This document shows positions 362 through 63,261 of a DNA stretch of 64,000 nt, piece after piece. Position 1 is the stretch's first letter; the number at the start of each line of letters is the position of its first letter. The DNA lies in the IMG/VR virus record IMGVR_UViG_3300045988_183972; one strand, given 5' to 3'. A program made the position numbers and the translations under genes. This DNA comes from a virus. Below the pieces are notes generated by a model. The model was given only the letters and a program-made list of their open reading frames with translations. It ran no database searches and was not told the DNA's origin.

Positions 362-751
362 ATGATTGGTATTCCTATAACACAAGACATTTTAAAATAT
401 GAAGCTAAATTTGCTCTTAATCTAACAACAAGAAAATGTATTTTTTATGGATTAGGAGCTACAGCTGTATTAACAAGTCTCTTTTTATTATTTAAAGATT
501 TTAGTTTTACATTTAGAGCGTGTGCTTCTATTTGTATAGGAATTCCTTTATTTCTTTGGGGTGCAGTAAAACCTTTTGGTGTTAACCCAGAAAAGATTAT
601 AAGCCCTATAATTTTTGATAATTTTATTGCACCTTCTGTACGAATTAAAGAAATCCATATGACAGTATATGATGATAAGAAAAAAATAGTAAAAGAAACA
701 AAAAAGAAAAATAGAGCAAAAATAAGTAAAGAGTATAAACCTATATATTAA
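362..751 (+). CDS. small two-TM membrane protein, TcpE / Tn916-ORF17-like (VirB3 analogue) preceding the VirB4 ATPase
   Basis: Two hydrophobic segments (CIFYGLGATAVLTSLFLLF; ICIGIPLFLWGAVKPF), size and position immediately upstream of VirB4-like gene as in Tn916/pCW3-type transfer loci. Confidence 0.4.
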   Translation: MIGIPITQDILKYEAKFALNLTTRKCIFYGLGATAVLTSLFLLFKDFSFTFRACASICIGIPLFLWGAVKPFGVNPEKIISPIIFDNFIAPSVRIKEIHMTVYDDKKKIVKETKKKNRAKISKEYKPIY

Positions 752-771
752 TATTACGAAAGGATATATTT

Positions 772-3240
772 ATGGGATTTGGTAAAAAAAATAAAAATAA
801 TATAAATACTGTTGATAATGAACAGAATAAAAATAAAAAGAAAACTAATAAAAAGAAGATTAAAATACCTAAAACAGTTCAAGATACTTTAGATTGGGAA
901 TGTGTTTTTGAAAATGGTGTTTTTCAAATAGGTCCTAAAAGATTTTCTAAAACTTTTTATTTTGAAGATATTGCTTTTAAAACAAAATCTGATGAAGACC
1001 AGATGGCTATTTATCAGGCATATTTAAGATTTCTTAATTCTATAAATCCTGATGAAGATTTATTTATTACTTTTGTTAATTATAAAGATGATGAAAATGC
1101 TAAGTTAGCGGCAATCCTTCCTATAAATAAAGATGATGGCTTTAATAATTATAGAAAAGAATTAGGAACTATTTTAAGAAATAATATTAAATTAAGTAGA
1201 AATGCTATATCTACAAAAAGATATATTACTGTTTATGTAAATGCAGATACAGTTGATAATGCAATGTTGAGACTAAATGAATTAGAAACAACTTTAGAAA
1301 ATGCTTTTAAAAAAATATGTGGTGCAAAATTAACAGCCATATCTTTAGAAGAAAGATTAGAAGTTATTAATAATATTTTAAATGGCACAGATGAAGCAAA
1401 CTATTGGTTTGTACACGATAAAACAGGAAAAACAACTATAGATTTTAAAGAAATGGCAAGACAAAAGCTTACTACTAAAGATATTATAGCTCCTCAGTCT
1501 ATGAAATTTTATAGTAATCGTTTTGAAATTAATGAAAGAATAGGACAGGGAATGTATCTTGATAATTTAGCAAACTGGATGGATACTAATTTTTTACCTA
1601 GTCTGATAGCTGTTAATTTTGAGTCAGTTTTTACTATTCATATATCTGCATTAGAGCAGACAGAAGCAATAAAGAAGGTACATAATAAATCTATTAATAT
1701 AAATGCTGAAATAGAAGATAAAATGGATGCAAGAGCAGCAAAAGGCAAAGACCCTACTTTTATTAATGCAGATTTAAGAAAAGCACAGGCTGAAATAGAA
1801 GATTTACAAAATGATATTCAAAACAGAGACCAGAAATATTTCTTTATGGATATGTCTATTATTCATTTTGCAGAAAATAAGCAGATTTTAAAAGAACAAG
1901 AAAAAATAATAAAAAATAGTGCAAATAAATATATGTGTTCGATAAAACCAGCTTTAGAACAGCAGGAAAGATGTCTTATTAGTACATTACCTTTGGGTCA
2001 TAACAAAATGTTCCAGACAAGAGGTCTTACTACAGAAAATTTAGGAGTTTTCTTACCTTTCGATGAGATAAACCAGTTTGATGTTAATGGTATTTATTAT
2101 GGAGTAAATGCTATTAATAAATCTTTAATAGTTTATGACAGAACAAAAGGTATGAACTATAATGGTTTAATTTTTGGTGCTTCTGGTTCTGGTAAATCTT
2201 TTAGTGCTAAACGTGAAATAACAAGTGTTCTTCTTAATAAAAATGCAAATTGTTATATCATAGACCCAGATGATGAATATACACCTATTGCAGATGCATT
2301 TGGTGGAACTATAATTAAAATATCACCTGGTAATGGTGTTTATATAAATCCCTTCGATTTAGATATAGATACATCTGCTGATAGTGATTTAAACCCTATT
2401 ACTATGAAGATAGATTTTATTTGTGGTTTGCTGGAAACAATGATAGGAAATAATGCTAAATTATCTCCAACACAAATTTCTATTGTTACTAGATGTGTAC
2501 AACAGATATATAGACCTTATTTAGAGCATTTACAGGAACTCCCTCCAGACGAAAATGGTAGAAAACGTACTATAGATAGAGATTATTGTCCTACAATGCA
2601 GAATTTATTTGATGCTTTAATTAACCAGCCTCAATCAGAAGCTCAAAACCTTGCCTTAATTATGGAAACATATACAGCAGGAGCATTTGATACATTTGCT
2701 CATAGAACAAATGTAGATATAGATAATAAGTTTATTATTTTTAATATATCTAACATTGGTACAAACTTAAAAGAATTAGGTCTTAAAATTTGTGTAAACC
2801 ACGTCTGGAATAAAATGGTAGAAAACAGAAGAAATAAGAAATGGACTTGGTTTTATATAGATGAATTCCATTTACTTCTTAAGAGCCATTCGACATCAGA
2901 TTTCATAATGTCTATTTTTAAGAGAGCTAGAAAGTTCTTAGGAGTTACTACAGGTATTACGCAAAATGTTGGAGATTTACTTAGAACAGAAGATGGACAA
3001 GCTATTATTAATAATACATCTTTCATTTATATGTTAAATCAATCAGCAATGGATAGATATGATTTACAAAAATTATTAAAACTGTCTGATGGAGATGTTG
3101 AATATGTTACAAATGTAGAACAAGGTCACGGTCTTATTTATACAGGAACACAGACAATACCATTTTCTGATGATTTCCCAGAAGATACTAAGTTATATGA
3201 TATTATGACAACTAAACCTAAACAAGAGGAAGTTGCGTAA
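772..3240 (+). CDS. conjugative transfer ATPase, VirB4 / TcpF / Tn916-ORF16 family
   Basis: 822 aa; Walker A GASGSGKSFSAK, Walker B-like WFYIDEFHLL; size and architecture typical of Gram-positive VirB4 homologues; good RBS (AAAGGA). Confidence 0.8.
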   Translation: MGFGKKNKNNINTVDNEQNKNKKKTNKKKIKIPKTVQDTLDWECVFENGVFQIGPKRFSKTFYFEDIAFKTKSDEDQMAIYQAYLRFLNSINPDEDLFITFVNYKDDENAKLAAILPINKDDGFNNYRKELGTILRNNIKLSRNAISTKRYITVYVNADTVDNAMLRLNELETTLENAFKKICGAKLTAISLEERLEVINNILNGTDEANYWFVHDKTGKTTIDFKEMARQKLTTKDIIAPQSMKFYSNRFEINERIGQGMYLDNLANWMDTNFLPSLIAVNFESVFTIHISALEQTEAIKKVHNKSININAEIEDKMDARAAKGKDPTFINADLRKAQAEIEDLQNDIQNRDQKYFFMDMSIIHFAENKQILKEQEKIIKNSANKYMCSIKPALEQQERCLISTLPLGHNKMFQTRGLTTENLGVFLPFDEINQFDVNGIYYGVNAINKSLIVYDRTKGMNYNGLIFGASGSGKSFSAKREITSVLLNKNANCYIIDPDDEYTPIADAFGGTIIKISPGNGVYINPFDLDIDTSADSDLNPITMKIDFICGLLETMIGNNAKLSPTQISIVTRCVQQIYRPYLEHLQELPPDENGRKRTIDRDYCPTMQNLFDALINQPQSEAQNLALIMETYTAGAFDTFAHRTNVDIDNKFIIFNISNIGTNLKELGLKICVNHVWNKMVENRRNKKWTWFYIDEFHLLLKSHSTSDFIMSIFKRARKFLGVTTGITQNVGDLLRTEDGQAIINNTSFIYMLNQSAMDRYDLQKLLKLSDGDVEYVTNVEQGHGLIYTGTQTIPFSDDFPEDTKLYDIMTTKPKQEEVA

Positions 3241-3266
3241 TTATAAAATTATATATTTGTTTTAAA

Positions 3267-3300
3267 GATTGTCACATTAAGGAATTAGTGTGACATCTTT
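3267..3300 (+). terminator. hairpin terminator after VirB4-like gene
   Basis: Inverted repeat tgtcacat...tgtgaca followed by T-run tcttttttt. Confidence 0.45.
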
Positions 3301-3388
3301 TTTTATAGAATAAACATTTATTTACAATTAATAAAAAAATAATAGGACATTATTCTATATATATAGTTTTTTTTGAAAGGAAGTTTTT

Positions 3389-4198
3389 ATGGAAAATTGG
3401 AATAAATATTTTAATGAAAATACAGATGATGATAACAATATTGCAAGCAATGTTTATGCAAATAATGTTTCAGAAAACAATGTTACAAATGATTATGAAC
3501 TTGAAGATAATTTAGAAATAAATCAAAATAATGATAATATAGATGATAATGAGTTAAATAAATATTTAGAAAATGAGAATGATAATTTTAGTTTAACAGT
3601 AAGTGAGTATAAAACATTTTGTGACAGATTATCTGGATTTAATGAAATAGATGAAACTAAAGCAGCTATAACATATCAGTCTTATAATATAAATCCACAA
3701 GATGTTAATAAAAATACAACAAATGATATTGTATATAATTTAAATAATGCTGTAGCTGAAATTGCTTATGATGAGTTACATCCAGATTTAGCAGTATTAT
3801 CTATTAAGTTTAAAAGTTTTGATGACCCAGAACTTAGACTTTTCTGGTCAAGAATACAAAAATGGAGAACTTCTTTAAGTAGACCACAAGATAATGATGA
3901 AATTCCTGTTTTTGTTATTACTCTTATAGAAAAAGATAGTGTAAATTCTGTAAAAGATAAAGAGCATTATACAATATTATCTGCAAATATTGTAAATCCC
4001 TTAATTTGTTATATCACAAGGGAAATTCCTACAATTTCTGCTGAAAATATAATTAATGAGCGTGATGAAATTATGGGAGGAAATGTTATAAAAATGCTTT
4101 TAGCTACAGATTTTTTAACATTTGAAGTAAGAGATGATATTGATATTACAAATATAAAAGCAGAGGTTTTAAGAGAAAATGAAGAAGAAGCTTTATAG
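3389..4198 (+). CDS. hypothetical protein with Asn/Asp/Glu-rich N-terminus
   Basis: 269-aa ORF with GAAAGGAAG RBS; low-complexity acidic N-terminal third; no catalytic motifs seen. Confidence 0.4.
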   Translation: MENWNKYFNENTDDDNNIASNVYANNVSENNVTNDYELEDNLEINQNNDNIDDNELNKYLENENDNFSLTVSEYKTFCDRLSGFNEIDETKAAITYQSYNINPQDVNKNTTNDIVYNLNNAVAEIAYDELHPDLAVLSIKFKSFDDPELRLFWSRIQKWRTSLSRPQDNDEIPVFVITLIEKDSVNSVKDKEHYTILSANIVNPLICYITREIPTISAENIINERDEIMGGNVIKMLLATDFLTFEVRDDIDITNIKAEVLRENEEEAL

Positions 4199-8894: not shown

Positions 8895-10493
8895 ATGAAT
8901 AATGTAGAAATAAAGAAATATGATGCTAAAATCAAGGAAATTGATAAAATAATAAACACATATTCTGAGAGTAAAAATTTAGGTATAAAGTTATACTATG
9001 TTCCTGAAATATATTCAGAAAATAAGATTGATTATATAGCAATAAAATCTAATAATGAGTTTTATAAAATTCCTACGATTAAATACAATGATAATCCATT
9101 GTATTTAATGAATGTAATTACAAGAGATTTATGTAATCTGGACTTATTAGAAGTCTTAACAGATGATAAAGTAATAGATGCAATCAAATCTATTTATAAA
9201 CAGGATATAACATTAAATGAAGCATTAAACAACAAAAAAATTGAAAGATTTATAACTCCTATTAAAGAAAGATTAGATGATGTTTTGGAACATATAACAT
9301 TACCTGCAAGAAGTAATAAGAAAGGTTTTTATGACAGAACAAAATTAGATGCAATAAAAAGATATGTTGCAGAAAATAGTAATTTTAAACCTGTTTATGA
9401 AAACGAATACTGTTTAATTTTTGGGAAAAAGATGCCAAGAAGTGATGAAAATATATTAATAAGCAGTCATTCTGATATTGTAAATACGATAACAAATGTA
9501 AACAGTTCTTATAAGAACGGATTTTATCACGGAACATATGATAATTTAGGTACTAATGCGGCAGCAGTATCTATTATGTGTATGAATGAAAATAACTTAT
9601 CAGATAATGTTTTTTTTGCTTTTACTGCTGAAGAAGAGACAGGTAGATGTTTAGGAGCAAAATCAGCTTATCAATTTATGGAAAGAAATTCAAAATATCC
9701 AACATTATATGTATCTTTAGATGTAACAGATGAAGGATATGATGATAATAGATTATGTTCAATAGAAGGATTACACGCTAACAATGATATTAAAAGTAAA
9801 ATCGCAGATAGTATGATGATAACTGAAGGAGAAGAGCAATCATTCTGTGTTATAAAAGCAAAACATAAAGATAGTTCTCCTTTTAATAAAGATTATATTG
9901 ATGGAAATTATACTGTTTTTGATGAAGGTGTTTATTATGGTCAGACTTTAAACCAAAATGCATTAAGCTTTTGTTTACCTACTGATGGAAGTATGCATAG
10001 TAATACAGGTTTAGATGTTAAAGATAGTATATTTACAGGATATATTTTATCGCTTGATACTTTTATACACCAATACACTAATACTAAAAACTTTGAAATT
10101 GAAGATATAAAAGATTATAAGGATTATCTTGTAAATAAAGCAAAAGAAACAAAGAAAGTCTATGCTTTTGCTAATCTTAATTATAGACCTGATTTTAGTT
10201 ATACGCTAGATGATTATTATGAAGAAGATGAAGATTTATATGCGGATTCTTTTAGTATTGCTGAATTATATGGAATTGATTTAGATGAAAAAGGAAAAAT
10301 ATCTTCAGATGATATACCATATGAATTAGAATCAACATTATCAGAACTTGCAGAAGGATATGGTGCAACTGAAATATATGAATATTTAGCAGATATGGAT
10401 TGTGAGTTTGGGGGAATTATACCTGAAGAAGTTTTAGTTCCGATTTTTAATAAATATCACGAACAGGAAGAGGAATTAGATTATACATCCTAA
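8895..10493 (+). CDS. protein with M20/M28/M42-type zinc metallopeptidase-like domain
   Basis: Start moved to ATG 8895 (RBS GAAAGGTAAAAAG); motifs SSHSDIV (HxD), GTYDNLGTNAAA (bridging Asp), TAEEETG (Glu-Glu) in the order typical of M20/M28/M42 peptidases; acidic C-terminal tail. Confidence 0.4.
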   Translation: MNNVEIKKYDAKIKEIDKIINTYSESKNLGIKLYYVPEIYSENKIDYIAIKSNNEFYKIPTIKYNDNPLYLMNVITRDLCNLDLLEVLTDDKVIDAIKSIYKQDITLNEALNNKKIERFITPIKERLDDVLEHITLPARSNKKGFYDRTKLDAIKRYVAENSNFKPVYENEYCLIFGKKMPRSDENILISSHSDIVNTITNVNSSYKNGFYHGTYDNLGTNAAAVSIMCMNENNLSDNVFFAFTAEEETGRCLGAKSAYQFMERNSKYPTLYVSLDVTDEGYDDNRLCSIEGLHANNDIKSKIADSMMITEGEEQSFCVIKAKHKDSSPFNKDYIDGNYTVFDEGVYYGQTLNQNALSFCLPTDGSMHSNTGLDVKDSIFTGYILSLDTFIHQYTNTKNFEIEDIKDYKDYLVNKAKETKKVYAFANLNYRPDFSYTLDDYYEEDEDLYADSFSIAELYGIDLDEKGKISSDDIPYELESTLSELAEGYGATEIYEYLADMDCEFGGIIPEEVLVPIFNKYHEQEEELDYTS

Positions 10494-10601
10494 TATAATA
10501 AAAAAACAATATATCTTATAAAAAATAATATTTTATAAGATATAAATAAAACACCTTAAATAATTTTAGACACCATTATTATTATTTGAGGTGATTTTTT
10601 T

Positions 10602-11468
10602 ATGAGAAAAATAATAAATAATTTTGTACAAATATCTATTCTGTTATGTTTTATTGTAATTTTTAGTTCAAATAAAATAAATGTATATGCTTCAGATGAT
10701 ATTCCAATAGTAACACTTGATGCTGGACACGATAGCTTTCATACAGGAGCAACAGCAAATGAATTATATGAAGAAAAATTAAATTTAATAATTACAAATT
10801 ATTGTAAAGATTATTTAGAAAAACATTCTAATATTATTGTGTATTTATCAAGGGATAATTTTACCTGTCCTTATCCAGACACACCATATAAAGATTGTAA
10901 TTATGAAAGGTTAATAAAAGCAAAAGAAGTAAATACAGACCTTTTTTATAGCATTCATTGTAATTATAGTCCACACGAATATATGAATGGAGCTAGTGTT
11001 ATAATTCCAAATACAAATTTTAAACCATATTTTTATGAAGAAGGAAATATATTAGCAAATATTATAAAAAATAATTATAGTAATTTAATTCCTGTTACAG
11101 AAATATATACAAGAAATTCAGATGAAGATGAAGAAACAATAGATAATTTCTATCCAGATGAAACAAGGGCTGATTATTATAATGTAAATAGAACAAGTAA
11201 ATATAATGATTTTTTAGGAATTATTGTTGAACACGGATTTCTTTCTAATACAAATAATGCAGAAATTTTAAAGAATACAGATATTTTAAAACAAATAGGT
11301 GAAGCTGATGCAAAGTCTATAATAGAGTATTTTAAAAATAAAGGATATGATTGTGAATTAGAATATATAGAACAAAAAACAACACCCGATATTGATAAAG
11401 TAAAAGATTTATTTATAAAAGAAAGATACAAAAAATTCAAATTTTTTATAGAATTTTTAAATAAATAA
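10602..11468 (+). CDS. secreted N-acetylmuramoyl-L-alanine amidase (Amidase_3 family)
   Basis: N-terminal signal-like hydrophobic segment; Amidase_3 signature DAGHDSFHTGATANELYEEKLNL, SIHCNYSPHEYMNGASVII, VEHGFLSN (Zn ligands His/Glu/His and catalytic Glu in correct order). Confidence 0.7.
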   Translation: MRKIINNFVQISILLCFIVIFSSNKINVYASDDIPIVTLDAGHDSFHTGATANELYEEKLNLIITNYCKDYLEKHSNIIVYLSRDNFTCPYPDTPYKDCNYERLIKAKEVNTDLFYSIHCNYSPHEYMNGASVIIPNTNFKPYFYEEGNILANIIKNNYSNLIPVTEIYTRNSDEDEETIDNFYPDETRADYYNVNRTSKYNDFLGIIVEHGFLSNTNNAEILKNTDILKQIGEADAKSIIEYFKNKGYDCELEYIEQKTTPDIDKVKDLFIKERYKKFKFFIEFLNK

Positions 11469-11530: not shown

Positions 11531-13378
11531 ATGAATAAAGGAGTAAAATATATGAACAAAAATGAGTATGTATCATATTTTTTAGAGGACATTGAGGAAC
11601 TTTTGGTAGATAACGCTAAAAGCTTTTATAATATTAGTGCAGCTAAGACATATGATGATGACAAAAGTCCAATATTATTAGTAGGTTATCCTAATTCTGC
11701 AATGAGAGCATATGAAATCCCATATATAAAAAGAGATATTAAAAATGCTAATGATTATAGAGATATTTTAACAATTTATAGAGATAAAATAAGAGATTTA
11801 AAAACAAATATTATTCTTGATATAGAAAATTATGAAAATACTCTTGATAATATTAATAATTTTAGGAATACTCCAACAAATGTAGAAAATACAGAAATAG
11901 CAGAGGAAATTCCTAGAACAAGATTACATTCAGATGAATATTATGAGGAGTACGATACAGATTATTATTCTGAATTTATTGATACAGTAAAAGATTGGAT
12001 TAGAGATTATGAAGTAGAACATAATTGTCATATTGATGATGGTGATTATGGAGCATTGTATAATGATTACAATAATAATGATGATAGCTTTTTAGAAACT
12101 ATGCTTAGTAATCTTGATAAATTTAATATAACTTATAATACTGTTTCAGAAGATAGGCAGGAAGAATTTGATAATGCTGTTCAGGACTTAACAAGTACAG
12201 AGGAACAGGAGAGTGAAAATCCTTTAGATACTGATGAAAGAATAGTTCTTAATCATACAGAAGATTATTATGAAGACTTTGACCCTTATGATTTTGAAGA
12301 ATTTAAGGATGTTGTAAATGATTATATTGAAGATTACAATAAAACAGTTAGTGAAGACAAAAAAGTTCAGAGAGAATCTATTAGTGAATTTATATTAGAA
12401 GACCTTTATGAAAATGATTATTTAGATGAGCCATTAAGCTTTTATCATTCTTTTTTAGAAGTTATGGAAGATAATATTGGAAAAATTGATTTTGAAGCAA
12501 TAGAAAGACATAATTTAATTCCAGATGAAAATGAATATATACCTCATCATACAAGAGATTATTATGAAGATTATGATACAGATTATTTAGATGAATTCAT
12601 TGAAACAGCTAAAGAATGGATTGAAGATTATGAGCATCTAAATAGTGTGACTATAATAATAGATGATGAGGAATTTGAAGACTTAAATGCTATTTATCAG
12701 GATAATGATTATAGTTTTAATGCAACAATGCTTGATAATATGGGTAAAGTATTCTATGTTATTAATCATCCAGAAGAATATTATAATAGATTAGATGGAC
12801 TTATTAGCAATAAAGAACATTTTGAAAAAAATGCTAAGGAATGGATTAATGATAATTTTAAATACTTAGTTATTTTGTCTAAATCTGATATAGATAATAT
12901 AGATTATAGTGAGATATATAATAATTATTGTAATAATGGTATATCATTTGTTGATACAATGCTTAATAGTATGATTAATTATGATTATTTGATAGAAGAC
13001 CCAAGAGAAGGTATGGTCTTTACTCAACCTATTAGCCATATTGTAACACAGCAAAATACTATAAATGAAACTGTAAGCACAAATAGAAGAACTCCACAAG
13101 AGCTTAGAGAACTTTATAATCAGGCAAAAGATTTTGAAAATGTAAGAAATAATCTTGAAAAATTCTTACTAACAGATGAAGATAGAACTAATAATAATAT
13201 TTATGAAAATTCTGACGGGTTTGGTTATAGAATTATTTTTGATGATAATACTAAATTAAAAGTACCTAAGTCTATGATTACTAAATGGATAGATGATTAT
13301 GGTATTGATTATATTGAAGAAAACTTGTTTAATAAGTCATTTGAATGTCAAGATAATGACGAAATATCTTTAGATTAA
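11531..13378 (+). CDS. highly acidic protein with three internal ~30-aa repeats (candidate DNA mimic / anti-restriction-like)
   Basis: 615 aa, D/E/Y-rich; repeats SDEYYEEYDTDYYSEFIDTVKDWIRDYE (nt ~11930-12025), TEDYYEDFDPYDFEEFKDVVNDYIEDY (~12258-12345), TRDYYEDYDTDYLDEFIETAKEWIEDYE (~12551-12645). Confidence 0.5.
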   Translation: MNKGVKYMNKNEYVSYFLEDIEELLVDNAKSFYNISAAKTYDDDKSPILLVGYPNSAMRAYEIPYIKRDIKNANDYRDILTIYRDKIRDLKTNIILDIENYENTLDNINNFRNTPTNVENTEIAEEIPRTRLHSDEYYEEYDTDYYSEFIDTVKDWIRDYEVEHNCHIDDGDYGALYNDYNNNDDSFLETMLSNLDKFNITYNTVSEDRQEEFDNAVQDLTSTEEQESENPLDTDERIVLNHTEDYYEDFDPYDFEEFKDVVNDYIEDYNKTVSEDKKVQRESISEFILEDLYENDYLDEPLSFYHSFLEVMEDNIGKIDFEAIERHNLIPDENEYIPHHTRDYYEDYDTDYLDEFIETAKEWIEDYEHLNSVTIIIDDEEFEDLNAIYQDNDYSFNATMLDNMGKVFYVINHPEEYYNRLDGLISNKEHFEKNAKEWINDNFKYLVILSKSDIDNIDYSEIYNNYCNNGISFVDTMLNSMINYDYLIEDPREGMVFTQPISHIVTQQNTINETVSTNRRTPQELRELYNQAKDFENVRNNLEKFLLTDEDRTNNNIYENSDGFGYRIIFDDNTKLKVPKSMITKWIDDYGIDYIEENLFNKSFECQDNDEISLD

Positions 13379-13459
13379 AAAATAATAATATAAAGTCCTT
13401 TAAAGTAATAATAATTGCATTATTTTAAAGGGCTTATATTTATATATAGTACAATAATA

Positions 13460-13514
13460 AATCGAACATCTGTTGGGTGTCGAAATTGACTAAACTAGGA
13501 AAGAAATTTTTAGG
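13460..13514 (+). repeat. copy 1 of a conserved ~50-nt motif (TCGAAC..GTGyCGAAAnTGACTAAACTAGnAAAnAAnTTTTTAGG)
   Basis: Near-identical core shared with 29684-29740 and 58168-58218, all in + orientation; GC-richer than surroundings. Confidence 0.5.
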
Positions 13515-13554
13515 TATTTAATCAATAAAAAGACAGATTATAAGGAGAGAAAAT

Positions 13555-14325
13555 ATGTATTGGGAAAATATAGAAGAACAAGTATGGAATAATGCTGGTT
13601 TTGTAAATAGTAAAAAAATACAAGAGATTAGAAGTAAACAATTTAAAAATCCTGTTATTTATGTTGATATGGATGGTACATTGTTTCAATGGAATAGATT
13701 AAAAAGTAAAGAATACCCAGATGGTGTTACTTTAGAAATGGTTTATTCACCTGGTTATTTTAGAAATTTAAAACCTAATTTAGGTATTTTAGAATTAGTA
13801 AATGCTTTACACGATAAAGGATATGATATAAAGATAGCATCTAAATCTAGTTATACAGCTATAAAAGAAAAATATGATAGCTTAATGGAATATTTACCTT
13901 TTTTAAACAAAAATGATATTTATTTTATTCCTTTAAATGCAAATAAGTCAGATTTTCTTCCAAATATAAAATCTAATGATATTTTAATAGATGACTATAA
14001 TCCTAATTTAGATGAATTTAAAGGAAGTGTTATAAAATGTGTTACAGATATTAATACAATAAATCCTAAATACCCTTGGATTAAAAATAATGCTCCAGTT
14101 TATAAAAATATAGATAAAATAACTTGGACTTTAATAAGAGAATGGAAGTTTTCACAAAATTCAGAAAATCCTTTAAACCTTACAGATTTAAAATACATTT
14201 TTGATAAAAGTGTTATGTCTTTTGAAGATTTTTATAATATATGTAATGGTTTTAATATTAATTTAGATGAGTTTGCTTTTTTAAAAACAAAAAATGAAAA
14301 AGATGAAGAAGAAATAGAAATATAA
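13555..14325 (+). CDS. HAD-superfamily 5'(3')-deoxyribonucleotidase-like protein
   Basis: VIYVDMDGTLFQW (HAD motif I DxDGT), later LIDD (motif IV-like); RBS AAGGAGAGAAAAT. Confidence 0.5.
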   Translation: MYWENIEEQVWNNAGFVNSKKIQEIRSKQFKNPVIYVDMDGTLFQWNRLKSKEYPDGVTLEMVYSPGYFRNLKPNLGILELVNALHDKGYDIKIASKSSYTAIKEKYDSLMEYLPFLNKNDIYFIPLNANKSDFLPNIKSNDILIDDYNPNLDEFKGSVIKCVTDINTINPKYPWIKNNAPVYKNIDKITWTLIREWKFSQNSENPLNLTDLKYIFDKSVMSFEDFYNICNGFNINLDEFAFLKTKNEKDEEEIEI

Positions 14326-22013: not shown

Positions 22014-23129
22014 ATGGAAAATACAAATACATCTTTAACATTAGATGAAATAATAGAAAAGAACAGAAAAGATTTATTTTCAGAATTAAATGAATTCTTA
22101 GATAATGAAAAGATAACAGATATTGAATGGGATGGCGAACATTTATGGATAACAGAGTTAGGAAAAGGCTGTTATCCTGTTGATAAAAAATTATCTATAG
22201 ATTTTGTGAATAATTTAAGTATCAGATTATCAAATATAATGAAAACTAATTTTAATGCTTTAAACCCTATATTGGAAGCACATACAAAAGAATTAAGAAT
22301 ATCAATCTTTCACGAAAGCAGAACTGGGGAAAAATCTATAACTATTAGGAAAATTCCTACAAATATAAGATATAACCACGAAAAATTAGTAAAAGATAAT
22401 ACAATCCCAGAAGAATTATTAAACCTATTAGAAAATTGTGTTAAAGCACATTGTAATATAGTTGTTGGAGGAAGACCTCACGCAGGAAAAACAGAATTAG
22501 TTAAATACTTATCTAATTTTATACCAGCAAATGAGAAAGTAGTGACATTAGAGGATAATGCAGAAATCCATTATAGAGAAATACATCCTAATAGAAAGAG
22601 TGTATCATTTTTAGTTGATGATAAAGTAACATATTCAGATGCTATTAAGGCTTGTTTGAGACATAATGCTGATTGGTTACTATTATCTGAAGCAAGAGGA
22701 CCAGAGATTATTGAACTTCTTAATGCACTTAGTACAGGAAGTTATTGTATGACGACAGTACACGTAGATGGAGCTAAAGACATTCCTGATAGAATGTATA
22801 ATATGCTTAATAATAGTAGTATAAATGAAAGATTTATCAATAACATATATCGTTATATGGATGTAGGAATAATAATAAAAGCTGATAAAAAAGAAAACAG
22901 AATTATATCAGAAGTTGGATTTTTTAACAGAGCAAATGTTAAGAATGAAGATGGAGAATATGAAATGCAGAACATTTATACACCTTTTTATAATACATTT
23001 GAAGGGTTAAAAGATAAAGATAAGTTACCTATAAATATCCAAAGAGCATTTGTAAGAGAAAATATTAAAAATCCATTTGAAAAACCAGAAATTACTGATG
23101 AAATAAAGGAAGTTTCTGTAAATGGTTAA
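22014..23129 (+). CDS. secretion/pilus-assembly ATPase of the TadA/CpaF/VirB11 (T2SSE) family
   Basis: Walker A VVGGRPHAGKTELVKYL, Asp-box KVVTLEDNAEIHY, Walker B DWLLLSEARGPE, His-box GSYCMTTVHVDGAKDIPDRM in canonical order. Confidence 0.65.
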   Translation: MENTNTSLTLDEIIEKNRKDLFSELNEFLDNEKITDIEWDGEHLWITELGKGCYPVDKKLSIDFVNNLSIRLSNIMKTNFNALNPILEAHTKELRISIFHESRTGEKSITIRKIPTNIRYNHEKLVKDNTIPEELLNLLENCVKAHCNIVVGGRPHAGKTELVKYLSNFIPANEKVVTLEDNAEIHYREIHPNRKSVSFLVDDKVTYSDAIKACLRHNADWLLLSEARGPEIIELLNALSTGSYCMTTVHVDGAKDIPDRMYNMLNNSSINERFINNIYRYMDVGIIIKADKKENRIISEVGFFNRANVKNEDGEYEMQNIYTPFYNTFEGLKDKDKLPINIQRAFVRENIKNPFEKPEITDEIKEVSVNG

Positions 23130-26041: not shown

Positions 26042-27310
26042 ATGGAAAAAATAAAATATTCAGCTAGTGAAAAAAAGAATAGACATTTGTTATTTGAAAC
26101 TAATAAAAATTTATTTATTACAGGAGCAGGAGGTACAGGAAAATCTACTTTTCTAAATGAATTTATAGAAAAGAACCCTAATACAATAGTAACAGCTCCA
26201 ACAGGAATAGCGGCAGTAAATATAGGAGGAGTAACAACTTTTAATGCTTTTAGTATACCAATACCTTGTTTTGGAGCTACAACAAATAAACTGACTGAAG
26301 CAAAATTAAAGAAGATAATTATGGTTGATAATGTAATTATTGATGAAATAAGTATGTGCAGAGTAGATGCTTTTGTTTATATCACAAAGGTAATTAAAAA
26401 AGCTGAAAAGATAAAAGGTAAGAAGATAAGAATTATTGTTAGTGGGGATTTCTCACAGCTTCCTCCTGTAATTACAGATGAAGATGCTAAAATGTTAAAA
26501 AAATTTGGTTTTCATAAGTCTGGGTTGCCTTTTACTTGTAAAGAGTGGGAAAATTGTCATTTTACTACTATAGAGCTTACAGAAGTTAAAAGACAGGATA
26601 ATCTTGAATTTATAGAAAACTTAAATAAAGCCAGATTAGCAGATAAAAAATGTATAACATATTTTAATCAGTTTGTAACAGATGAAATTCCAGATGATTG
26701 TATTCATATATGTGGAACTAACGCAGAAAGTTCTAAACTTAATAAAGAATATTTGGACTCATTAGAGGGTATGCCATATGCGTATCAGGCAGTAAAACAA
26801 GGAAGAACTACAGGAGCATATGTAGATGATATTATTATTCTTAAAGATGGAGCAAATGTATATTTTACAGTCAATGATATATACGAGCATAAATATGTTA
26901 ATGGAACATTTGGAAAAATACATAAATGTTTTAATGACCATATAGAAGTAGAAGTTGATGAAGAAATAATAGATGTTTACCCACACAGATATTCGGTTTA
27001 TAATTATAAAATTATAAATGGAGTATTAAAGAAAGAAGAAATTGGTTCAGTTTTACAAATGCCTTTAAAATTAGCTAAAGCAATTACTGTGCATAAATCC
27101 CAAGGCAAAACTTTTAATAAAGAAGTGTTTACACCTAAAATATTCGCAGCAGGACAGGCTTATGTTGCATTAAGCAGAGTAAGAAATCCTGAAGGTTTAT
27201 TTTTAACAGAACCTTTACTTCCAGAACAATTAATGTCAGACAGAACAGTACTTAAATTTTATAAAAATAATTATAAATTTGAAAGTAATCGTAAAAAAAC
27301 AGAAAAATAA
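26042..27310 (+). CDS. PIF1/RecD-family (AAA_30) DNA helicase
   Basis: Walker A ITGAGGTGKSTFL, motif Ia VTAPTGIAAVNIGG, Walker B IIDEISMC, C-terminal AITVHKSQGKTF and GQAYVALSRVRNPEGLFL (UvrD_C_2-like). Confidence 0.7.
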   Translation: MEKIKYSASEKKNRHLLFETNKNLFITGAGGTGKSTFLNEFIEKNPNTIVTAPTGIAAVNIGGVTTFNAFSIPIPCFGATTNKLTEAKLKKIIMVDNVIIDEISMCRVDAFVYITKVIKKAEKIKGKKIRIIVSGDFSQLPPVITDEDAKMLKKFGFHKSGLPFTCKEWENCHFTTIELTEVKRQDNLEFIENLNKARLADKKCITYFNQFVTDEIPDDCIHICGTNAESSKLNKEYLDSLEGMPYAYQAVKQGRTTGAYVDDIIILKDGANVYFTVNDIYEHKYVNGTFGKIHKCFNDHIEVEVDEEIIDVYPHRYSVYNYKIINGVLKKEEIGSVLQMPLKLAKAITVHKSQGKTFNKEVFTPKIFAAGQAYVALSRVRNPEGLFLTEPLLPEQLMSDRTVLKFYKNNYKFESNRKKTEK

Positions 27311-29037: not shown

Positions 29038-29604
29038 TTACTTATTATTGATTTCCTTTTCTTTATTAAAAAATGCTAACCCTATACAAATACTGTCAGC
29101 AATATCGTCACTAACATCTATATCGTATATTTGTTTTACTAATTCGATAGCTCTATTTTTTAATTCTTTTCTTTTTAATTTTACTTTATTTTCTGAATTA
29201 GGTATTCCTACAGCTTTTCTCCAAACAGTAGGAGAGTAGAAATATATCAAACATCTCTTATGTTCTATTGAATAACTAAGAACTAAGCCTTGTATATGAC
29301 ATAACTTTTTATAAGCATATCCATCTTTTCCCATATAAGTATCTTCAATAACTATTACTTTAGGTTTATATTTTTTTAGATAAATATTAATTCCTTTTAT
29401 CATTTCAATTATTCGATAATCCATATTTTTCTTTTTTATTTCATTTTCCTCTTGTTTATTCATATTTTTATTTGTTTCATAAGGATTATCTGGTTTAATA
29501 TAAGTGTAATCTATAAGTTCTTTTGTATTATAATCAAAAACAGCAATACCAGTATTTGTTGTACTTCCATCTATGCTGATTAAATATTGCTTTATTTTAT
29601 TCAT
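29038..29604 (-). CDS. RuvC-family Holliday-junction resolvase-like nuclease
   Basis: ISIDGSTTNTGIAVFD (RuvC motif I), VIVIEDTYMG (catalytic Glu), C-terminal DVSDDIADSICIGLAF (DxxDA motif). Confidence 0.55.
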   Translation of the reverse strand: MNKIKQYLISIDGSTTNTGIAVFDYNTKELIDYTYIKPDNPYETNKNMNKQEENEIKKKNMDYRIIEMIKGINIYLKKYKPKVIVIEDTYMGKDGYAYKKLCHIQGLVLSYSIEHKRCLIYFYSPTVWRKAVGIPNSENKVKLKRKELKNRAIELVKQIYDIDVSDDIADSICIGLAFFNKEKEINNK

Positions 29605-29683
29605 TTGTTTTTATTCCTTTTTTAATAATATATATTATCTTTTTTATTTTTAATTTAATGAAAATCAAAAGTAATTTTATATA

Positions 29684-29740
29684 AATCGAACGGTTGTTCC
29701 GGTGCCGAAAATGACTAAACTAGATAAAAAGTTTTTAGGG
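29684..29740 (+). repeat. copy 2 of the conserved ~50-nt motif
   Basis: aaatcgaacggttgttccggtgccgaaaatgactaaactagataaaaagtttttaggg; aligns with copies at 13460 and 58168. Confidence 0.5.
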
Positions 29741-30025
29741 TTTATTTAGAAATAATTCTATAGTATTAATAGCACTACCATTTATAGATATAATTTCTAA
29801 TTCTTCTAATTCTTTTTTTATATCAGTAGACATTCTTTTACTAAAAAAATCTTTTGTTCTAAAATCAATAGGATTGTTTAAATATTGCTCTATTTCAATA
29901 ATACCTAACCTTTTATTGGTTTCTATTTCATATAAAACAATATGTGTTGGAGCTATTCTTGAATATGATGAACCATATTTTATTATTAAATTTTCTAAAA
30001 ATACTATATAATCTTTTAATTTCAT
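29735..30025 (-). CDS. hypothetical protein (96 aa)
   Basis: Minus-strand ORF; divergent from + strand genes across AT-rich 30026-30321 region. Confidence 0.4.
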   Translation of the reverse strand: MKLKDYIVFLENLIIKYGSSYSRIAPTHIVLYEIETNKRLGIIEIEQYLNNPIDFRTKDFFSKRMSTDIKKELEELEIISINGSAINTIELFLNKP

Positions 30026-30321
30026 ATTAATAAAATACCTTTCTTTGTGTAATAAATATATGTATGTTTTATATATTTTAAATTATAATAATAATGTCTT
30101 TTATTTTATAAATTGTTTAAATTTTGATGTATATTTTTTGACATTTTTACATTATTATTAAAAACAAAAAATATGATATAAAATATTATTATTTAATTAA
30201 GAAAGAAAAATATTATAATTATATTTGACAGTAGTAAAATACAGATTTATAAATATAATTAAAGATATTTAATATAAAAATATCCCAAACTATTAATTAT
30301 ATAAAAAGAAAGGAAAATATT

Positions 30322-46678: not shown

Positions 46679-48045
46679 TTTACCGCAATCTCCGAAGCTT
46701 TAGCTTCGGGGTTAAGGTAACAAGATATTAGCCGACCTAAGTCAGCGGAAAGGAGAAATTGATATGATTAAAACCAATAGAGCTATTGTTTATAGATTGT
46801 ATCCAAATAAAAAGCAAGCAGAATTTTTTCAAAAGACTTTTGGATGTGTAAGATTTGTATATAATCAGATGCTTTCCGTTCAAGAAGAACGATATAAAAA
46901 TAATAAAAGTCATCTTAGTAAATTTGATATGAACTTTTATTGTAATCATAATCTTAAAACTGAATATACTTGGCTTAAAGAAATAGATAAGTTCGCTTTA
47001 ACAAATGCAATATATCACTTGGAAGATGGCTACCAAAGAATGTTTAAACATCTTGGAAAACATCCAAAGTATAAGAATAAGCATAAATCAAAGAAATCAT
47101 ATACTACAAATTTTACAAATAACAATATCGAAGTTGGAGAGAATTATATCAAGCTTCCAAAAGTCGGTAAAGTTAAAGCTAAAATCAGTCTTGATACAAG
47201 ATATTTACAAATCAAGTCCGCTACAATTACTCAAAACAGGGATGAAACCTATCAGGTATCTATTCTTTTTGAGATTATAGAAGAAGAACCAGTACAAGTC
47301 ATTCCTACTAAAAATAATACAACTGGTTTAGATTATAAATCAGATGGGTTGTATGTAAGTGATACAGGAGTAGTTGCCAATATGCCACATTATTACAAGC
47401 AGTCTGCGAATAGCCTTGCTAAACAGCAAAGAAAACTTCGTAATAAAGTAATTGGCAGTAAAAATTATTATAAACAGCAGAAAAAGGTCGCTAAAATTCA
47501 TAAACACATAGTAAATCAGAGAAAAGATTATTTACATAAACAATCTACTGCGATAGCCAAACAGTATGCTTATGTATGTGTAGAGAGTCTTAATATGAGA
47601 GCTATATCAAATAAGGGTTTTGGTAATGGTAAAGCTACATTGGATAATGGTTATGGAATGTTTTTAGATATGTTAGCTTATAAATTACAGGAACGAGGTG
47701 GAAAGCTTGTTAAAGTAGATAAATGGTTTCCATCAAGTCAGATATGTAATTGCTGTAGATTCCAAAATCCAATATTGAAAGACCTAACTATTAGGCATTG
47801 GAATTGTCCTAATTGTGGAACAACTAATATAGATAGGGATATAAATGCAGCTAAAAATATAAAACAAGAAGGATTAAGATTGTTAGGTATAGCTTAGTAA
47901 TCTAAAACATGGTAGGTATGGACGATACCGAACCTAAAAGTCTGTAGACATTGTGGGAAAACTACCAAAAGGTGTGATAATAACTGTAATGGATGAAGCA
48001 GGAATCCCTTGAGCTTTAGCTTTGGGGAGCGTCAAAGTAGAAGGA
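46679..48045 (+). mobile_element. IS200/IS605-family insertion sequence carrying only tnpB (IS1341-like), with related subterminal hairpins at both ends
   Basis: Left end tccgaagctttagcttcgggg hairpin (46689-46708), right end cttgagctttagctttgggg (48010-48029); TnpB ORF between; GC-richer than flanks. Confidence 0.65.
46764..47897 (+). CDS. tnpB: TnpB (OrfB) RNA-guided nuclease of IS200/IS605 family
   Basis: N-terminal AIVYRLYPNKKQAEFFQKTFGCVRFVYNQ, RuvC-like motifs, C-terminal zinc finger CNCCRFQNP...WNCPNCGTTNIDRDINAAKNI. Confidence 0.8.
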   Translation: MIKTNRAIVYRLYPNKKQAEFFQKTFGCVRFVYNQMLSVQEERYKNNKSHLSKFDMNFYCNHNLKTEYTWLKEIDKFALTNAIYHLEDGYQRMFKHLGKHPKYKNKHKSKKSYTTNFTNNNIEVGENYIKLPKVGKVKAKISLDTRYLQIKSATITQNRDETYQVSILFEIIEEEPVQVIPTKNNTTGLDYKSDGLYVSDTGVVANMPHYYKQSANSLAKQQRKLRNKVIGSKNYYKQQKKVAKIHKHIVNQRKDYLHKQSTAIAKQYAYVCVESLNMRAISNKGFGNGKATLDNGYGMFLDMLAYKLQERGGKLVKVDKWFPSSQICNCCRFQNPILKDLTIRHWNCPNCGTTNIDRDINAAKNIKQEGLRLLGIA

Positions 48046-56559: not shown

Positions 56560-56620
56560 TTTATTTCTAAAAAAATTTCTAAAATTCTAAAAAAGTCTAA
56601 TAAATACTCTAAAAAGATTT
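56560..56620 (+). repeat. iteron-like direct repeats (5 x TCTAAwAAA at ~10-nt spacing) in ORF-free AT-rich region - candidate replication origin
   Basis: tttctaaaaaaa tttctaaaa ttctaaaaaag tctaataaat ctctaaaaag; within 56190-56690 gap lacking ORFs, immediately upstream of primase-helicase gene. Confidence 0.4.
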
Positions 56621-56690
56621 CACTTTATAACATTATTTTTATAAAAGAAAAAATAACAGAAGTAAAAAAATAAGAAAGGAAAGATTTATT

Positions 56691-56834
56691 ATGATTGATT
56701 TAAATAATATGCCAATAGATGAACTTAAAAAATATTTATCAGAAAATAATTTATCTATCGTATGTGAAGATGGAAAGATTGTTTCTACTGTTTTAGAAAA
56801 AGAAGCTGATTTTGAAGACGAAAAAGAAATTTAA
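56691..56834 (+). CDS. hypothetical small protein (47 aa) between iterons and rep-like gene
   Basis: GAAAGGAAAGATTTATTATG. Confidence 0.3.
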   Translation: MIDLNNMPIDELKKYLSENNLSIVCEDGKIVSTVLEKEADFEDEKEI

Positions 56835-60161: not shown

Positions 60162-60482
60162 ATGGAGTTTGCAGTACAAAGCAATGTTATTAGAGAACTT
60201 TCAAAACAGCAATATCAGACATTAATGGAATTATGTCAGTATTCAAACAATCTTTACAATGTCGCACTTTACAATATCAGACAATATTTCTTTAATGAGA
60301 AACAGTTTTTAACTTACGAGAGTAATTATCACGAGTGTAAAGAAAATGAAAACTATGCTTTGTTACAAGCAGGAGTTGCACAACAGACTTTAAAAGTCGC
60401 TGATAGAAATTTTAAATCATTCTTTAATCTATTAAAGAAATGTAAAACTGGTGATTATCGTTACCATAAAGTTCACAAGTAG
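60162..60482 (+). pseudogene. truncated N-terminal fragment of a second, divergent TnpB/OrfB-like gene
   Basis: ...LQAGVAQQTLKVADRNFKSFFNLLKK matches the conserved N-terminal region of IS605 OrfB/TnpB proteins; ORF ends after 106 aa with no RuvC/zinc-finger region. Confidence 0.4.
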
Positions 60483-61785: not shown

Positions 61786-62676
61786 ATGGATAATACAGCT
61801 TTAGCAAAGAGAATGAAAAAATATTATGAAGAAGTACCTAAAACAAGATTAATAAGAAGAATGCCAGTATGTATAAGATTAGATGGAAAAGCATTTCATA
61901 CGTTTTTAAAGGGATTTAAAAAGCCATTTGATGATATATTTATAAAAACAATGCAGGATACTATGAGATACTTATGTCAGAATATACAGGGATGTGTATT
62001 AGGTTATTCACAATCAGATGAAATCAGTTTAATACTTATAGATTATCAAAAACTCACAACAAGTGCCTGGTTTGATTATAATGTTCAAAAGATATGTAGT
62101 GTGTCATCAAGTATGGCTACATTAACCTTTAATAAGCTATTAAAAAACAATGTTGATAAATATAAGGTTGAAAAATGGGATGGAGTTTCAAAGTATAAAA
62201 ATGGAGAAGATGAATATATTGAGACATTATTAAGAGCAGTTGATAAAGGTGCAATGTTTGATAGTAGATGTTTTAATATACCAAAGGAAGAGGTTGCTAA
62301 TTTAATATTCTGGAGACAATTTGATGCAAGCAATAATTCAGTACAAATGGTAGGACAGGCTTATTTTACGCAAGAAGAACTTAATAACAAGAATACTAAT
62401 CAGATACAGGATATGTTAATGACACAGAAAGGTATTAACTGGAATGACTTACCAACTTATCAGAAGAGAGGAAGTTGTTGTGTAAAACATAATTTTTGGA
62501 TTGATAAGAATGATGGTGAAGAATTTAGTAAAGAATATTCAGAAGCATTAGACAGAACTGCAATAGATGAAAATGCTATTAAGAGAACAAAGTGGATTAT
62601 AGATGAAAATATTCCTATTTTTAAAGGTGAAAATAGAAAATATATAAATGATTTAATATTATATAATGAAGAGTAA
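61786..62676 (+). CDS. Thg1-like protein (tRNA-His guanylyltransferase family 3'-5' nucleotidyltransferase, TLP)
   Basis: RMPVCIRLDGKAFHTF and GYSQSDEISLIL match Thg1 catalytic motifs VVRLDGRNFHRF / GQSDEYSF (two metal-binding Asp); AAAGAGGATAAAAAGCTATG. Confidence 0.55.
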   Translation: MDNTALAKRMKKYYEEVPKTRLIRRMPVCIRLDGKAFHTFLKGFKKPFDDIFIKTMQDTMRYLCQNIQGCVLGYSQSDEISLILIDYQKLTTSAWFDYNVQKICSVSSSMATLTFNKLLKNNVDKYKVEKWDGVSKYKNGEDEYIETLLRAVDKGAMFDSRCFNIPKEEVANLIFWRQFDASNNSVQMVGQAYFTQEELNNKNTNQIQDMLMTQKGINWNDLPTYQKRGSCCVKHNFWIDKNDGEEFSKEYSEALDRTAIDENAIKRTKWIIDENIPIFKGENRKYINDLILYNEE

Positions 62677-62691
62677 GAAAGGAATGATAGC

Positions 62692-63261
62692 ATGAAAAAA
62701 ATTCCTACTTTATTTAAAAGAGTTTATAAAGATAATAAAATTATAGATATACTTCCTGAAGTTACTGAAGGTATGGAATGGGGTTTAAAAGGAGAAGGAA
62801 TAGCCACGGTAAAAATAGATGGTTCTTGTAGTGCTATCATTAATGGTGTATTTTATAAGAGATACGATGCTAAAAATGGAAAACCTATTCCTAAGGGAGC
62901 TATTAAATGTCAGGAAGCAGCAGACCCGATTACAGGACATTTGCCTTGCTGGATTAGAGTAGATAAAGACAATCCTAGTGATAAATGGTTTTATGTTGCA
63001 TATCTAAATACATTAAAGGATAAAGAAGACTTAGTAAATGGAACATATGAGGCAATAGGCCCTCATTTTCAAGGAAATCCTTATAATCTATCTGAAGATA
63101 TATTACAAAAACACGGAAAATTTGTAATAGAAGTTGAAAGAAGTTTTGAAGGAATAAAGAAGTATTTATCAGAACATTATATTGAAGGTATTGTATTTTG
63201 GAAAGATGGAGAGCCGAAATGTAAGATAAAAAGGTCAGATTTTGGATTTGAGTGGAAGTAA
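62692..63261 (+). CDS. minimal covalent nucleotidyltransferase (RNA/DNA ligase-like) domain protein
   Basis: Motif I TVKIDGS (KxDG), motif IV EGIVFW, motif V KCKIKR in canonical order; 189 aa; GAAAGGAATGATAGCATG. Confidence 0.45.
   Translation: MKKIPTLFKRVYKDNKIIDILPEVTEGMEWGLKGEGIATVKIDGSCSAIINGVFYKRYDAKNGKPIPKGAIKCQEAADPITGHLPCWIRVDKDNPSDKWFYVAYLNTLKDKEDLVNGTYEAIGPHFQGNPYNLSEDILQKHGKFVIEVERSFEGIKKYLSEHYIEGIVFWKDGEPKCKIKRSDFGFEWK

Follow-up and report, generated by a model that had tools for sequence, protein, structure and literature searches.

In the RepA_N plasmids of Firmicutes, the origins lie in the central part of the repA gene. The oriV of repABC plasmids is located within repC, and silent mutations there abolish the replication of p42d (PMC3155836). 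The ssi signals of RSF1010, which have a GTG near a hairpin, are used by a plasmid-encoded primase resembling archaeo-eukaryotic primases (AEP), and this primase, RepB', initiates at ssiA and ssiB, a pair of 40-nt inverted repeats located on complementary strands (PMC8567376). Here we describe a repeated motif found in a 64-kb stretch of the IMG/VR record IMGVR_UViG_3300045988_183972 (the whole stretch is called the window below), which has a G+C content of 25% and carries nearly all of its genes on the + strand. The motif occurs three times in the window, and one of the copies lies inside a rep-like gene for an 890-aa primase–helicase fusion. We found that it is a genuine, non-coding, family-specific polar repeat, with no Rfam counterpart and none recognized among the known site families compared by eye, and that it is a feature of a family of human-gut elements that are very large, have a G+C content of 25%, and carry conjugation genes. 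Most likely, it is a polar DNA site, double- or single-stranded, that serves as a docking place for the DNA-handling machinery of the element.

Three same-orientation copies had been noticed by an earlier reader working from the letters of the window (the sequence-only reading), and all three were found again at the same positions on the + strand, far past the level of shuffled sequences. The 23-nt core GGTGYCGAAANTGACTAAACTAG (equal to GGTGYNNNNNNTGACTAAACTAG) is identical in copies 1–3, with starts at 13476, 29701, and 58178, where 0.07 matches are expected, and no shuffle of the window yields three. Exact matches to the 18-nt core CGAAANTGACTAAACTAG occur at 13481, 29706, and 58183; shuffles average 0.21 matches, and none of 100 reaches three. 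A profile built from 33 related copies matched the window at copies 1–3 only (E = 1e-15 to 3e-17), the next-best match having E = 2. These results show that the motif is well past chance expectation and is conserved across many related contigs. The 38-nt consensus proposed earlier describes copies 1 and 2 (0 and 1 mismatches), but misses copy 3 solely through a 1-nt indel in the A/T tract; the upstream block AAATCGAAC, said to be common to copies 1 and 2 with an indel, is indeed there. Both of these copies had been called intergenic, which holds for copy 1, whereas copy 2 lies between genes but overlaps, with its 3' end, the last codons of a 96-aa open reading frame (ORF, 29735-30025). This ORF remains open in a diverged orthologue, and a coding test of it found 9 differences only, too few to inform. 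Copy 2 is antisense to both neighboring genes. Orthologues of copy 1 are present in loci L011, L015, L019, L052, and L078, and those of copy 2 in L027, L051, L057, L061, and L070.

The anatomy of the motif was taken from an alignment of 26 distinct copies, and the base counts from 39 distinct sequences. The results showed that it is composed of three parts: a variable left arm, a near-invariant asymmetric core, and a length-variable right A-run/T-run. The left arm is semi-conserved and often hairpin-prone (..AAACATnnGTTTGG..), taking the forms (C)CAAACATnyGTTTGG, AAATTATATGTCAGG, and AGATTATCGTTAGG. The core has the nearly invariant consensus GGGTG-Y-CGAAA-N-TGACTAAACTAG, and its rare variants (GTCAACTTTGAC, GTCAAAAATGAC, GCAAACATTGAC, and GTAACGAAATTGAC) alter the middle only. 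On the right, an A-rich run is followed by a T-run ending in TTTAGG/C, and the length of this part varies by 1–2 nt even among near-identical orthologues. Position Y is C or T, rarely A, and of the 39 sequences, 24 have T, 8 have A, and 7 have G at position N, where C never occurs. Across 10 orthologue groups, N is variable in 6 and Y in 5, flanking positions in 1–3, and the other core positions in 0–1, except the G just 5' of Y (3). The core has no clear dyad symmetry, a weak dyad GTCR-N4-TGAC appearing in some variants only, and the alignment shows an invariant right arm and a variable left arm. Indels of 1 nt between copies shift the reading frame.

The sequence-only reading had proposed a search beyond the window, and this search found the motif on related human-gut contigs in a conserved order. 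The core pattern matched 68 loci in metagenome contigs, about 45 of which are genuine and the remainder chance, and a profile search of the matched loci (with ±7 kb of DNA examined around each) added 4 diverged copies. A small number of large contigs, several with a human-gut label, account for the genuine loci (Table 1). Grouped by their flanks, the copies represent about 19 distinct paralogous places on related contigs of 60–668 kb from the human gut, and related contigs hold 8–10 copies spaced about 10–50 kb apart. On ERZ791865.8, the copies lie at 69.2 (-), 69.3, 80.7, 103.2, 149.0, 199.2, 240.5, and 253.4 kb, and QFCE01002638.1 shows the mirror image of this order between 344.6 and 581.8 kb. 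A search of 185,579 species genomes found the motif on one 6.5-kb contig only, from an uncultured Clostridiaceae metagenome-assembled genome. Megablast of 20 kb of the window against phage and plasmid collections gave no match, blastn of copy 1 against plasmids gave chance matches only, a pattern scan of viral contigs gave 0 matches, and a literature search for core k-mers returned unrelated primer tails only.

Synteny across the assemblies showed that an inverted pair comes first, followed by 7–8 solo copies that point away from it. Seven contigs with multiple copies have about 36 of them on the main strand, which is coding and G-rich, and 5 on the opposite strand. All 5 of the latter are partners in back-to-back inverted pairs, 35–220 bp from a main-strand copy, and every solo copy is on the main coding strand, downstream of the pair and directed away. 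The four pair loci (L012 type, L024, L025, and L062) are without exception divergent, never convergent, and about 15 further paralogous copies occur singly. Most copies occupy spacers between co-oriented genes, 39–113 nt past the stop and 74–320 nt before the next start. The pairs of L025 and L062 sit between divergent genes, and the minus partner of the L012 type and the plus partner of L062 point into the 3' ends of convergent genes. Since copy 2 keeps the + orientation inside a minus-strand operon, whose promoter-like motifs lie elsewhere (30086-30160), the orientation of the motif follows the replicon strand, not local transcription, as observed at this one locus and in the pair partners. 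The strict polarity, the back-to-back pairs, and the spread over giant contigs were all beyond the reach of an earlier reader with one window.

Copy 3 was confirmed to lie in frame in the linker between the helix-turn-helix (HTH) and helicase domains of the rep-like protein, where it encodes about residues 430–447 (..FGVPKVTKLEKEVFKV..). The segment is predicted to be disordered by an AlphaFold model (residues 423–459, predicted local distance difference test score < 50). Its codons GGG, GTG, CCG, GTG, and CTA each make up 3–5% of their synonymous family in the window, and their joint chance is about 2e-7. The core is kept base-for-base in homologues of 55% (P0004, locus L035) and 63% (P0002, locus L079) protein identity with diverged flanks; retention was seen in the homologues of L017, L031, L033, L035/L059 (55%), and L079 (63%), the L079 version being GGGGTGCaaacaTTGACTAAACTAGAAAAAG. 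A search for repeated linker DNA in the distant homologues L080 and L081 gave nothing above chance. Because the codons are rare, the linker is disordered, and the core is retained at 55–63% protein identity, these sequence comparisons indicate that copy 3 is selected at the nucleotide level and not for its protein. Together with the frameshifting indels between copies, this bears out the earlier view of a nucleotide-level rather than a coding element.

It is quite different to suppose a selfish or neutral dispersed repeat, similar to repetitive extragenic palindromes (REP/REPIN) or miniature inverted-repeat transposable elements, which would have spread by single-strand transposition or duplication and owe its bias to insertion on the lagging-strand template. 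The intergenic preference, the REPIN-like inverted doublets, the orientation bias, the presence/absence polymorphism between lineages (L025b vs L062), and the IS605-family TnpB genes of the window (46764-47897, with a fragment at 60162) would agree with it. However, there are only about 10 copies per element of >200 kb, the unit is not palindromic, and orthologous copies hold their position and order across lineages. No Y1 transposase (TnpA/RAYT) was found, and the motif profile has no match at the ends of the TnpB elements. The gene-internal copy, kept base-for-base with rare codons in proteins of 55–63% identity, implies purifying selection on DNA. We therefore regard such an origin as very unlikely.

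The 890-aa protein is composed of a primase-like N-terminal domain, a helical region with an HTH, a linker, and a helicase (Table 1). The DxD, S-H, and D..N.DR..FGG motifs of the N-terminal domain read like those of an AEP, and the helicase part alone resembles TraA-type relaxase-helicases. A long, asymmetric, strand-polar element acting at the DNA level, with divergent pairs and a copy in a replication gene, is most simply accounted for by a cis site for replication or DNA-processing machinery. Among the candidates of the sequence-only reading, whose interpretation was partly supported overall, the most plausible is a putative binding site for a protein of the element itself, perhaps for the HTH of the protein encoded at 56880. 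We infer that this protein could be the one that binds and that the purpose could be priming or helicase loading; the copies would then be ori- or ssi-like recognition and loading sites for the replication primase–helicase, a tentative reading that is possible rather than probable. In this mechanism, the primase-like/HTH/Pif1-helicase fusion (56880-59552) would recognize the core, the A/T tract next to it would melt, and the 5'-3' helicase and the primase would load on the motif-bearing strand and move in the gene direction. The start point would be the inverted pair that stands back to back upstream of the solo copies, an origin with one site per strand as in RSF1010 ssiA/ssiB, and the co-oriented solo copies every 10–50 kb would allow priming or re-loading on the strand exposed as single-stranded DNA while the element replicates or transfers. 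The larger picture, in which a giant plasmid or an integrative and conjugative element-like replicon has distributed strand-polar initiation or re-loading sites for its own primase/Pif1-helicase fusion, with the inverted pair as the start, about 10 co-oriented sites, and one site in the linker of the enzyme itself, is unlikely in its entirety.

Several points weigh against such loading sites. The tie between the motif and the 890-aa protein is co-location alone, and it would be unusual for a bacterial replicon to have ten origins or priming sites. The strand polarity is almost wholly confounded with gene orientation, from which copy 2 and the pair partners separate it, and gene orientation is unchanged across the L012-type pair. 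More distant homologues (37–45% identity, in elements of 39–40% G+C) lack the core, and their linker sequence is not repeated in the 12–18 kb examined. L079, at 63% identity, has the gene-internal copy only in 22.7 kb. A hairpin is strong in lineage-B copies only and weak or absent elsewhere. In addition, the Shine–Dalgarno (SD)-like GGGTG followed by NTG, with N never C in the 39 distinct copies, could point to a role in RNA or translation.

We found a separate promoter-like motif, T-rich/TTnACn - N5 - (A/C)CATTATTATTA - TAtAAa, which lies 30–80 nt upstream of many gene starts on the appropriate strand. Its word ACATTATTATTA has 28 matches with at most 1 mismatch vs 7.6 expected. In the divergent spacer 30026-30321 it occurs on both strands, the minus-strand site being that of the minus operon and the plus-strand site that of the next plus operon. 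This second repeat family looks like the ordinary promoter of the element. The motif under study was rejected as a sigma-70 promoter, which would have two hexamers separated by 16–18 bp ahead of a co-oriented transcription unit: TTTAGG is the sole conserved block downstream of the -35-like TTGACT, at 17–23 nt, with a spacing unstable by 1–2 nt among near-identical orthologues, and copy 2 (antisense in an operon) and copy 3 (intragenic) are wrongly placed. In DNA this AT-rich, scans of the window with sigma-70 and terminator consensuses gave as many matches as scans of shuffles. An AT-rich hairpin, CCTTTAAA..19 nt..TTTAAAGG, lies in 13379-13450 between the stop of gene 11531-13378 and copy 1, and is a possible terminator that the consensus scan left unscored.

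Several motif copies have the promoter-like TTnACn..CATTATTATTA..TAtAAa 28–67 nt downstream, as an operator- or roadblock-type site for an element-encoded transcription regulator, or a site upstream of promoters, might have; its regulon would comprise about 10 transcription units. The location of most copies between co-oriented genes, the pairs of L025 and L062 between divergent genes, and a core length that suits a protein-binding site are consistent with this. The explanation is nevertheless doubtful, as copy 2 is antisense in a minus-strand operon with its promoter motifs elsewhere, copy 3 lies 1.3 kb inside a gene, and the L012-type minus and L062 plus partners face the 3' ends of convergent genes. 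The spacing from the promoter motif also varies, no regulator gene was identified, and the motif fails the sigma-70 geometry (TTGACT-to-TAG 17–23 nt, with 1–2 nt shifts between near-identical orthologues).

Comparison between lineages showed that copies have recombined. L012 (lineage A) and L024 (lineage B) have collinear outer flanks, and the about 90-bp segment between the inverted cores is flipped, with both crossovers within the core; a TGnTATAAT-like element in this segment faces the downstream gene in L024 only. L073 is 94–97% identical to L072, L058, and L064 (97% to L072) until 3 nt past the core; from this point, the right part of the motif and 284 nt of the other three give way in L073 to a 1.4-kb cassette (1650-3050) with genes for a 228-aa staphylococcal-nuclease-like lipoprotein and a protein of 141 aa. 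The plus copy of L062 has an unrelated left arm, joined exactly at ..C/CGAAA (the slash marks the junction). Y and N, which bracket the 5-nt CGAAA and are hypervariable among orthologues, differ among paralogues and also flip between orthologues, a pattern that would be expected from exchange or conversion among copies. A recombination site, whether an invertible-switch repeat, a shufflon-like asymmetric site, or a site of module exchange, with strand exchange within the invariant core, would explain these observations. This candidate of the earlier reader kept the inversion with its crossover in the core and the breakpoints at core edges in its favor, but no serine or tyrosine recombinase was found in about 80 ORFs of the window (at least 60–80 aa; Pfam, with a subset also searched in NCBIfam or PHROGs) or in about 20 ORFs by the pairs or upstream copies of L012, L024, L025, and L044 (Pfam). 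Both orientations of the inter-core segment are known between lineages only, and the five lineage-A assemblies all share one, so switching is not frequent. The core lacks a clear dyad, and most copies are solo direct repeats 10–50 kb apart, between which exchange would delete large segments. Cassette insertion at the core was rejected, since the 335-aa gene indel beside the L024 pair has its breakpoints about 50 nt downstream of the core. Moreover, a single inversion between 40-bp inverted repeats can come from homologous recombination or template switching. A dedicated recombination site is thus unlikely.

The sequence-only reading had also named small structured RNAs, which the folding analyses speak against. 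The Rfam gathering-score scan gave no match in the window, E-value scans gave chance matches only, and RNAalifold on the 26 copies found 0 consensus pairs and no covariation. Most copies have fold z-scores of -1.8 to +0.9. In three lineage-B copies (L025a/b and L066), 11 bp pair into a hairpin that includes one compensatory change (DNA fold z = -3.1 and -3.9), and the other copies have 0–6 bp in differing registers. A role at the RNA level could take other forms: a leader or intercistronic ribosome-binding site with a start codon (GGGTG - 6 nt - TTG/GTG/ATG), an internal start for a helicase-only isoform, or a linear RNA motif bound by protein. Primase-helicases with nested starts are known (T7 gp4A/B). 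As N is never C in the 39 distinct copies, NTG would always be a usable start, and a G-rich SD-like block, 6–7 nt upstream, is present even in diverged copies such as the degenerate one of L024, where it reads GAGGT. The C/T change at Y preserves G-C or G-U pairing in small local hairpins, and the A-run/T-run can form a slippage-tolerant hairpin that needs G-U pairs. On the other hand, the mini-ORFs starting at NTG have 5–40 codons and their frame is not kept between near-identical orthologues, copy 2 and the pair partners would require antisense transcripts, and a start region leaves the invariance of every base of TGACTAAACTAG unexplained; there is no consensus structure, covariation, or Rfam family. 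These results make an RNA-level role quite unlikely.

Other known sites were also considered. The oriT/nic sites suggested by the earlier reader, which are single, adjoin relaxase or coupling genes, and have an inverted repeat 5' of nic, are improbable: they fit poorly with about 10 co-oriented copies per element, and no relaxase domain was seen in the window or in L044/L012 upstream of the type IV secretion system genes. A parS-type centromere is palindromic, about 16 bp long, and bound by ParB; the core is asymmetric, and a strict polarity would be meaningless for a palindrome. Sigma-28, sigma-54, and extracytoplasmic function sigma promoters, integron attC, dif/Xer, Helitron-like ends, and MOBQ/MOBF nic regions were rejected, as they misfit in spacing or key bases or resemble the motif in short words only.

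The window contains a Gram-positive-type conjugation set (Table 1) and also encodes amidase, flotillin, and radical-SAM proteins, two Pif1-type helicases, a RuvC-like resolvase, and a full TnpB; many of its ORFs match no family, and a tRNA/tmRNA scan of the window found none. One of the helicases, a stand-alone Pif1/Dda-like protein of 422 aa, is encoded at 26042-27310, 30 kb upstream of the fused primase-helicase. Five direct TCTAAAA(A) repeats with 8–12 bp spacing, a candidate iteron or operator, lie at 56565-56621, upstream of the rep-like gene and of an ORF of 47 aa that starts at 56692. The TnpB gene at 46764-47897 is full-length (HTH_OrfB_IS605, OrfB_IS605, and Cas12f-like TNB domains) and has 650 nt of non-coding DNA after it; an N-terminal TnpB fragment (106 aa, 60162-60482) is encoded downstream of the rep-like gene, no TnpA was seen, and L079 also has a TnpB. 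A homologue of the Thg1-like tRNA-His guanylyltransferase adjoins an RNA-ligase-like gene (window 61786-63261), and in L079 a Thg1 gene lies downstream of the rep-like gene. Many otherwise unrelated proteins end in short acidic C-terminal tails (..NDEISLD, ..EEEIEI, ..DYELDK, ..LDLDLRL, ..NNIDLD, ..EDYDRD, ..DIELD, and ..EDYER), among them the window ORFs ending at 13378, 14325, 15826, 17474, and 28582(-) and proteins of loci L012, L024, L025, and L073; the tails may be a shared C-terminal recognition or export signal. In L025, a C5 DNA methyltransferase gene (9290-11266) is split by an intein-like insert (CLIGETKIL...VHNC), and L062 has an insert-free 541-aa homologue (1912-3537). Motif copies in direct orientation lie on either side of the split gene, at 9153 and 11305.

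Table 1. Coordinates of the motif copies, the rep-like protein, neighboring features, and motif-bearing contigs.
Feature	Location	Strand	Remark
Motif copy 1	13457-13524	+	core GGTGTCGAAATTGACTAAACTAG at 13476-13498
Copy 1 setting	13379-13554		176-nt spacer between gene 11531-13378 and NT5C-like gene 13555-14325
Motif copy 2	29681-29750	+	core 29701-29723
Copy 2 setting			between minus-strand RuvC-like gene 29038-29604 (start side) and stop of minus-strand 96-aa ORF 29735-30025
Motif copy 3	58156-58228	+	core 58178-58200, in frame in rep-like gene 56880-59552
Rep-like gene	56880-59552	+	890 aa, candidate trans-acting partner of the motif
Primase-like N-terminal domain	~aa 15-208		matches phage 'DNA primase'/primase-helicase PHROGs, E = 3e-5 to 2e-25
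Helical region with GerE/sigma-r4-like HTH	~aa 355-416		weak match
Disordered linker (predicted)	aa 423-459		carries copy 3
Pif1/RecD2/Dda-type superfamily 1B helicase	aa 466-890
PrgI-like	362-751		Gram-positive-type conjugation set
VirB4/TraG-like	772-3240		Gram-positive-type conjugation set
VirB11/T2SSE-like	22014-23129		Gram-positive-type conjugation set
Promoter-like motif sites	window 10573, 11491, 14422, 30086(-), 30149, 40160, 41020, 43315, 48280, 55136, 56630, 56837
Promoter-like motif beyond the window	L012 ~1620; L023
Contig ERZ791865.8			411,675 bp
Contig QFCE01002638.1			668,277 bp
Contig JABLTM010053727.1			273,676 bp
Contig OPLX01000005			209,284 bp
Contig OGHW01000035.1			136 kb
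Contig OOZQ01000043			107 kb
Contig OGHJ01000475.1			60 kb

The motif would bear on the replication and transfer of replicons of several hundred kb from uncultivated gut Firmicutes, and these elements have no close relative in the plasmid and phage collections searched. If the distributed loading sites were real, they would represent a multi-site priming system, in strand-displacement or polar-fork mode, of a kind not known to be described for bacterial replicons. A polar signal tied to a primase-helicase would provide both an experimental handle and a sequence tag for spotting this element family in assemblies. If the copies were operators or recombination sites instead, they would still mark the regulatory or modular architecture of an almost uncharacterized gene pool.

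Compared with other dispersed repeats, the motif resembles REP/REPIN sequences as short intergenic repeats found as singlets and inverted doublets, but it has a non-palindromic unit and few copies, one of them functionally constrained inside a gene, and no RAYT was found. The stoperators of cluster A mycobacteriophages are dispersed asymmetric repressor sites in short intergenic spacers, oriented with the genes; they are 13–14 bp long, number 20–30 per 50 kb, and follow transcription, whereas the motif has an antisense copy (copy 2) and a conserved unit of four times that length. The sfx sites of shufflons are asymmetric, and, as with these and with invertible promoters, inverted copies here flank a short segment found both ways between lineages, with the crossover in a conserved core. 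They differ in that no recombinase was found, five assemblies of one lineage share one orientation, and the copies are mostly distant direct repeats. The Ter sites of Tus/Ter and RTP/Ter are asymmetric, about 20–30 bp long, dispersed in about 10 copies, and strictly oriented to the fork, and R6K has an inverted Ter pair tens of bp apart. The motif is likewise asymmetric and strictly oriented, with about 10 dispersed copies and an inverted pair; Ter sites form two opposed groups, whereas all solo copies here have one orientation, no Tus- or RTP-like protein was identified, and only short chance words are in common.

Other likenesses are to replication signals. Like the repABC origin, copy 3 is embedded in a stretch of the rep-like gene that is under little constraint, and it is conserved as DNA; origins within initiator genes are single A+T-rich or iteron regions, whereas this site recurs about 10 times elsewhere. 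The hairpin that is essential in the IncQ ssi signals is not conserved across the copies here, which are mostly solo over >180 kb, with one within the replication gene, instead of one pair inside oriV. With RSF1010 ssiA/ssiB the motif shares an asymmetric unit of 40–60 nt confined to one plasmid family and an inverted pair on complementary strands, and here, too, a primase-like/helicase fusion is encoded and an invariant GGGTG stands beside a hairpin-prone arm.

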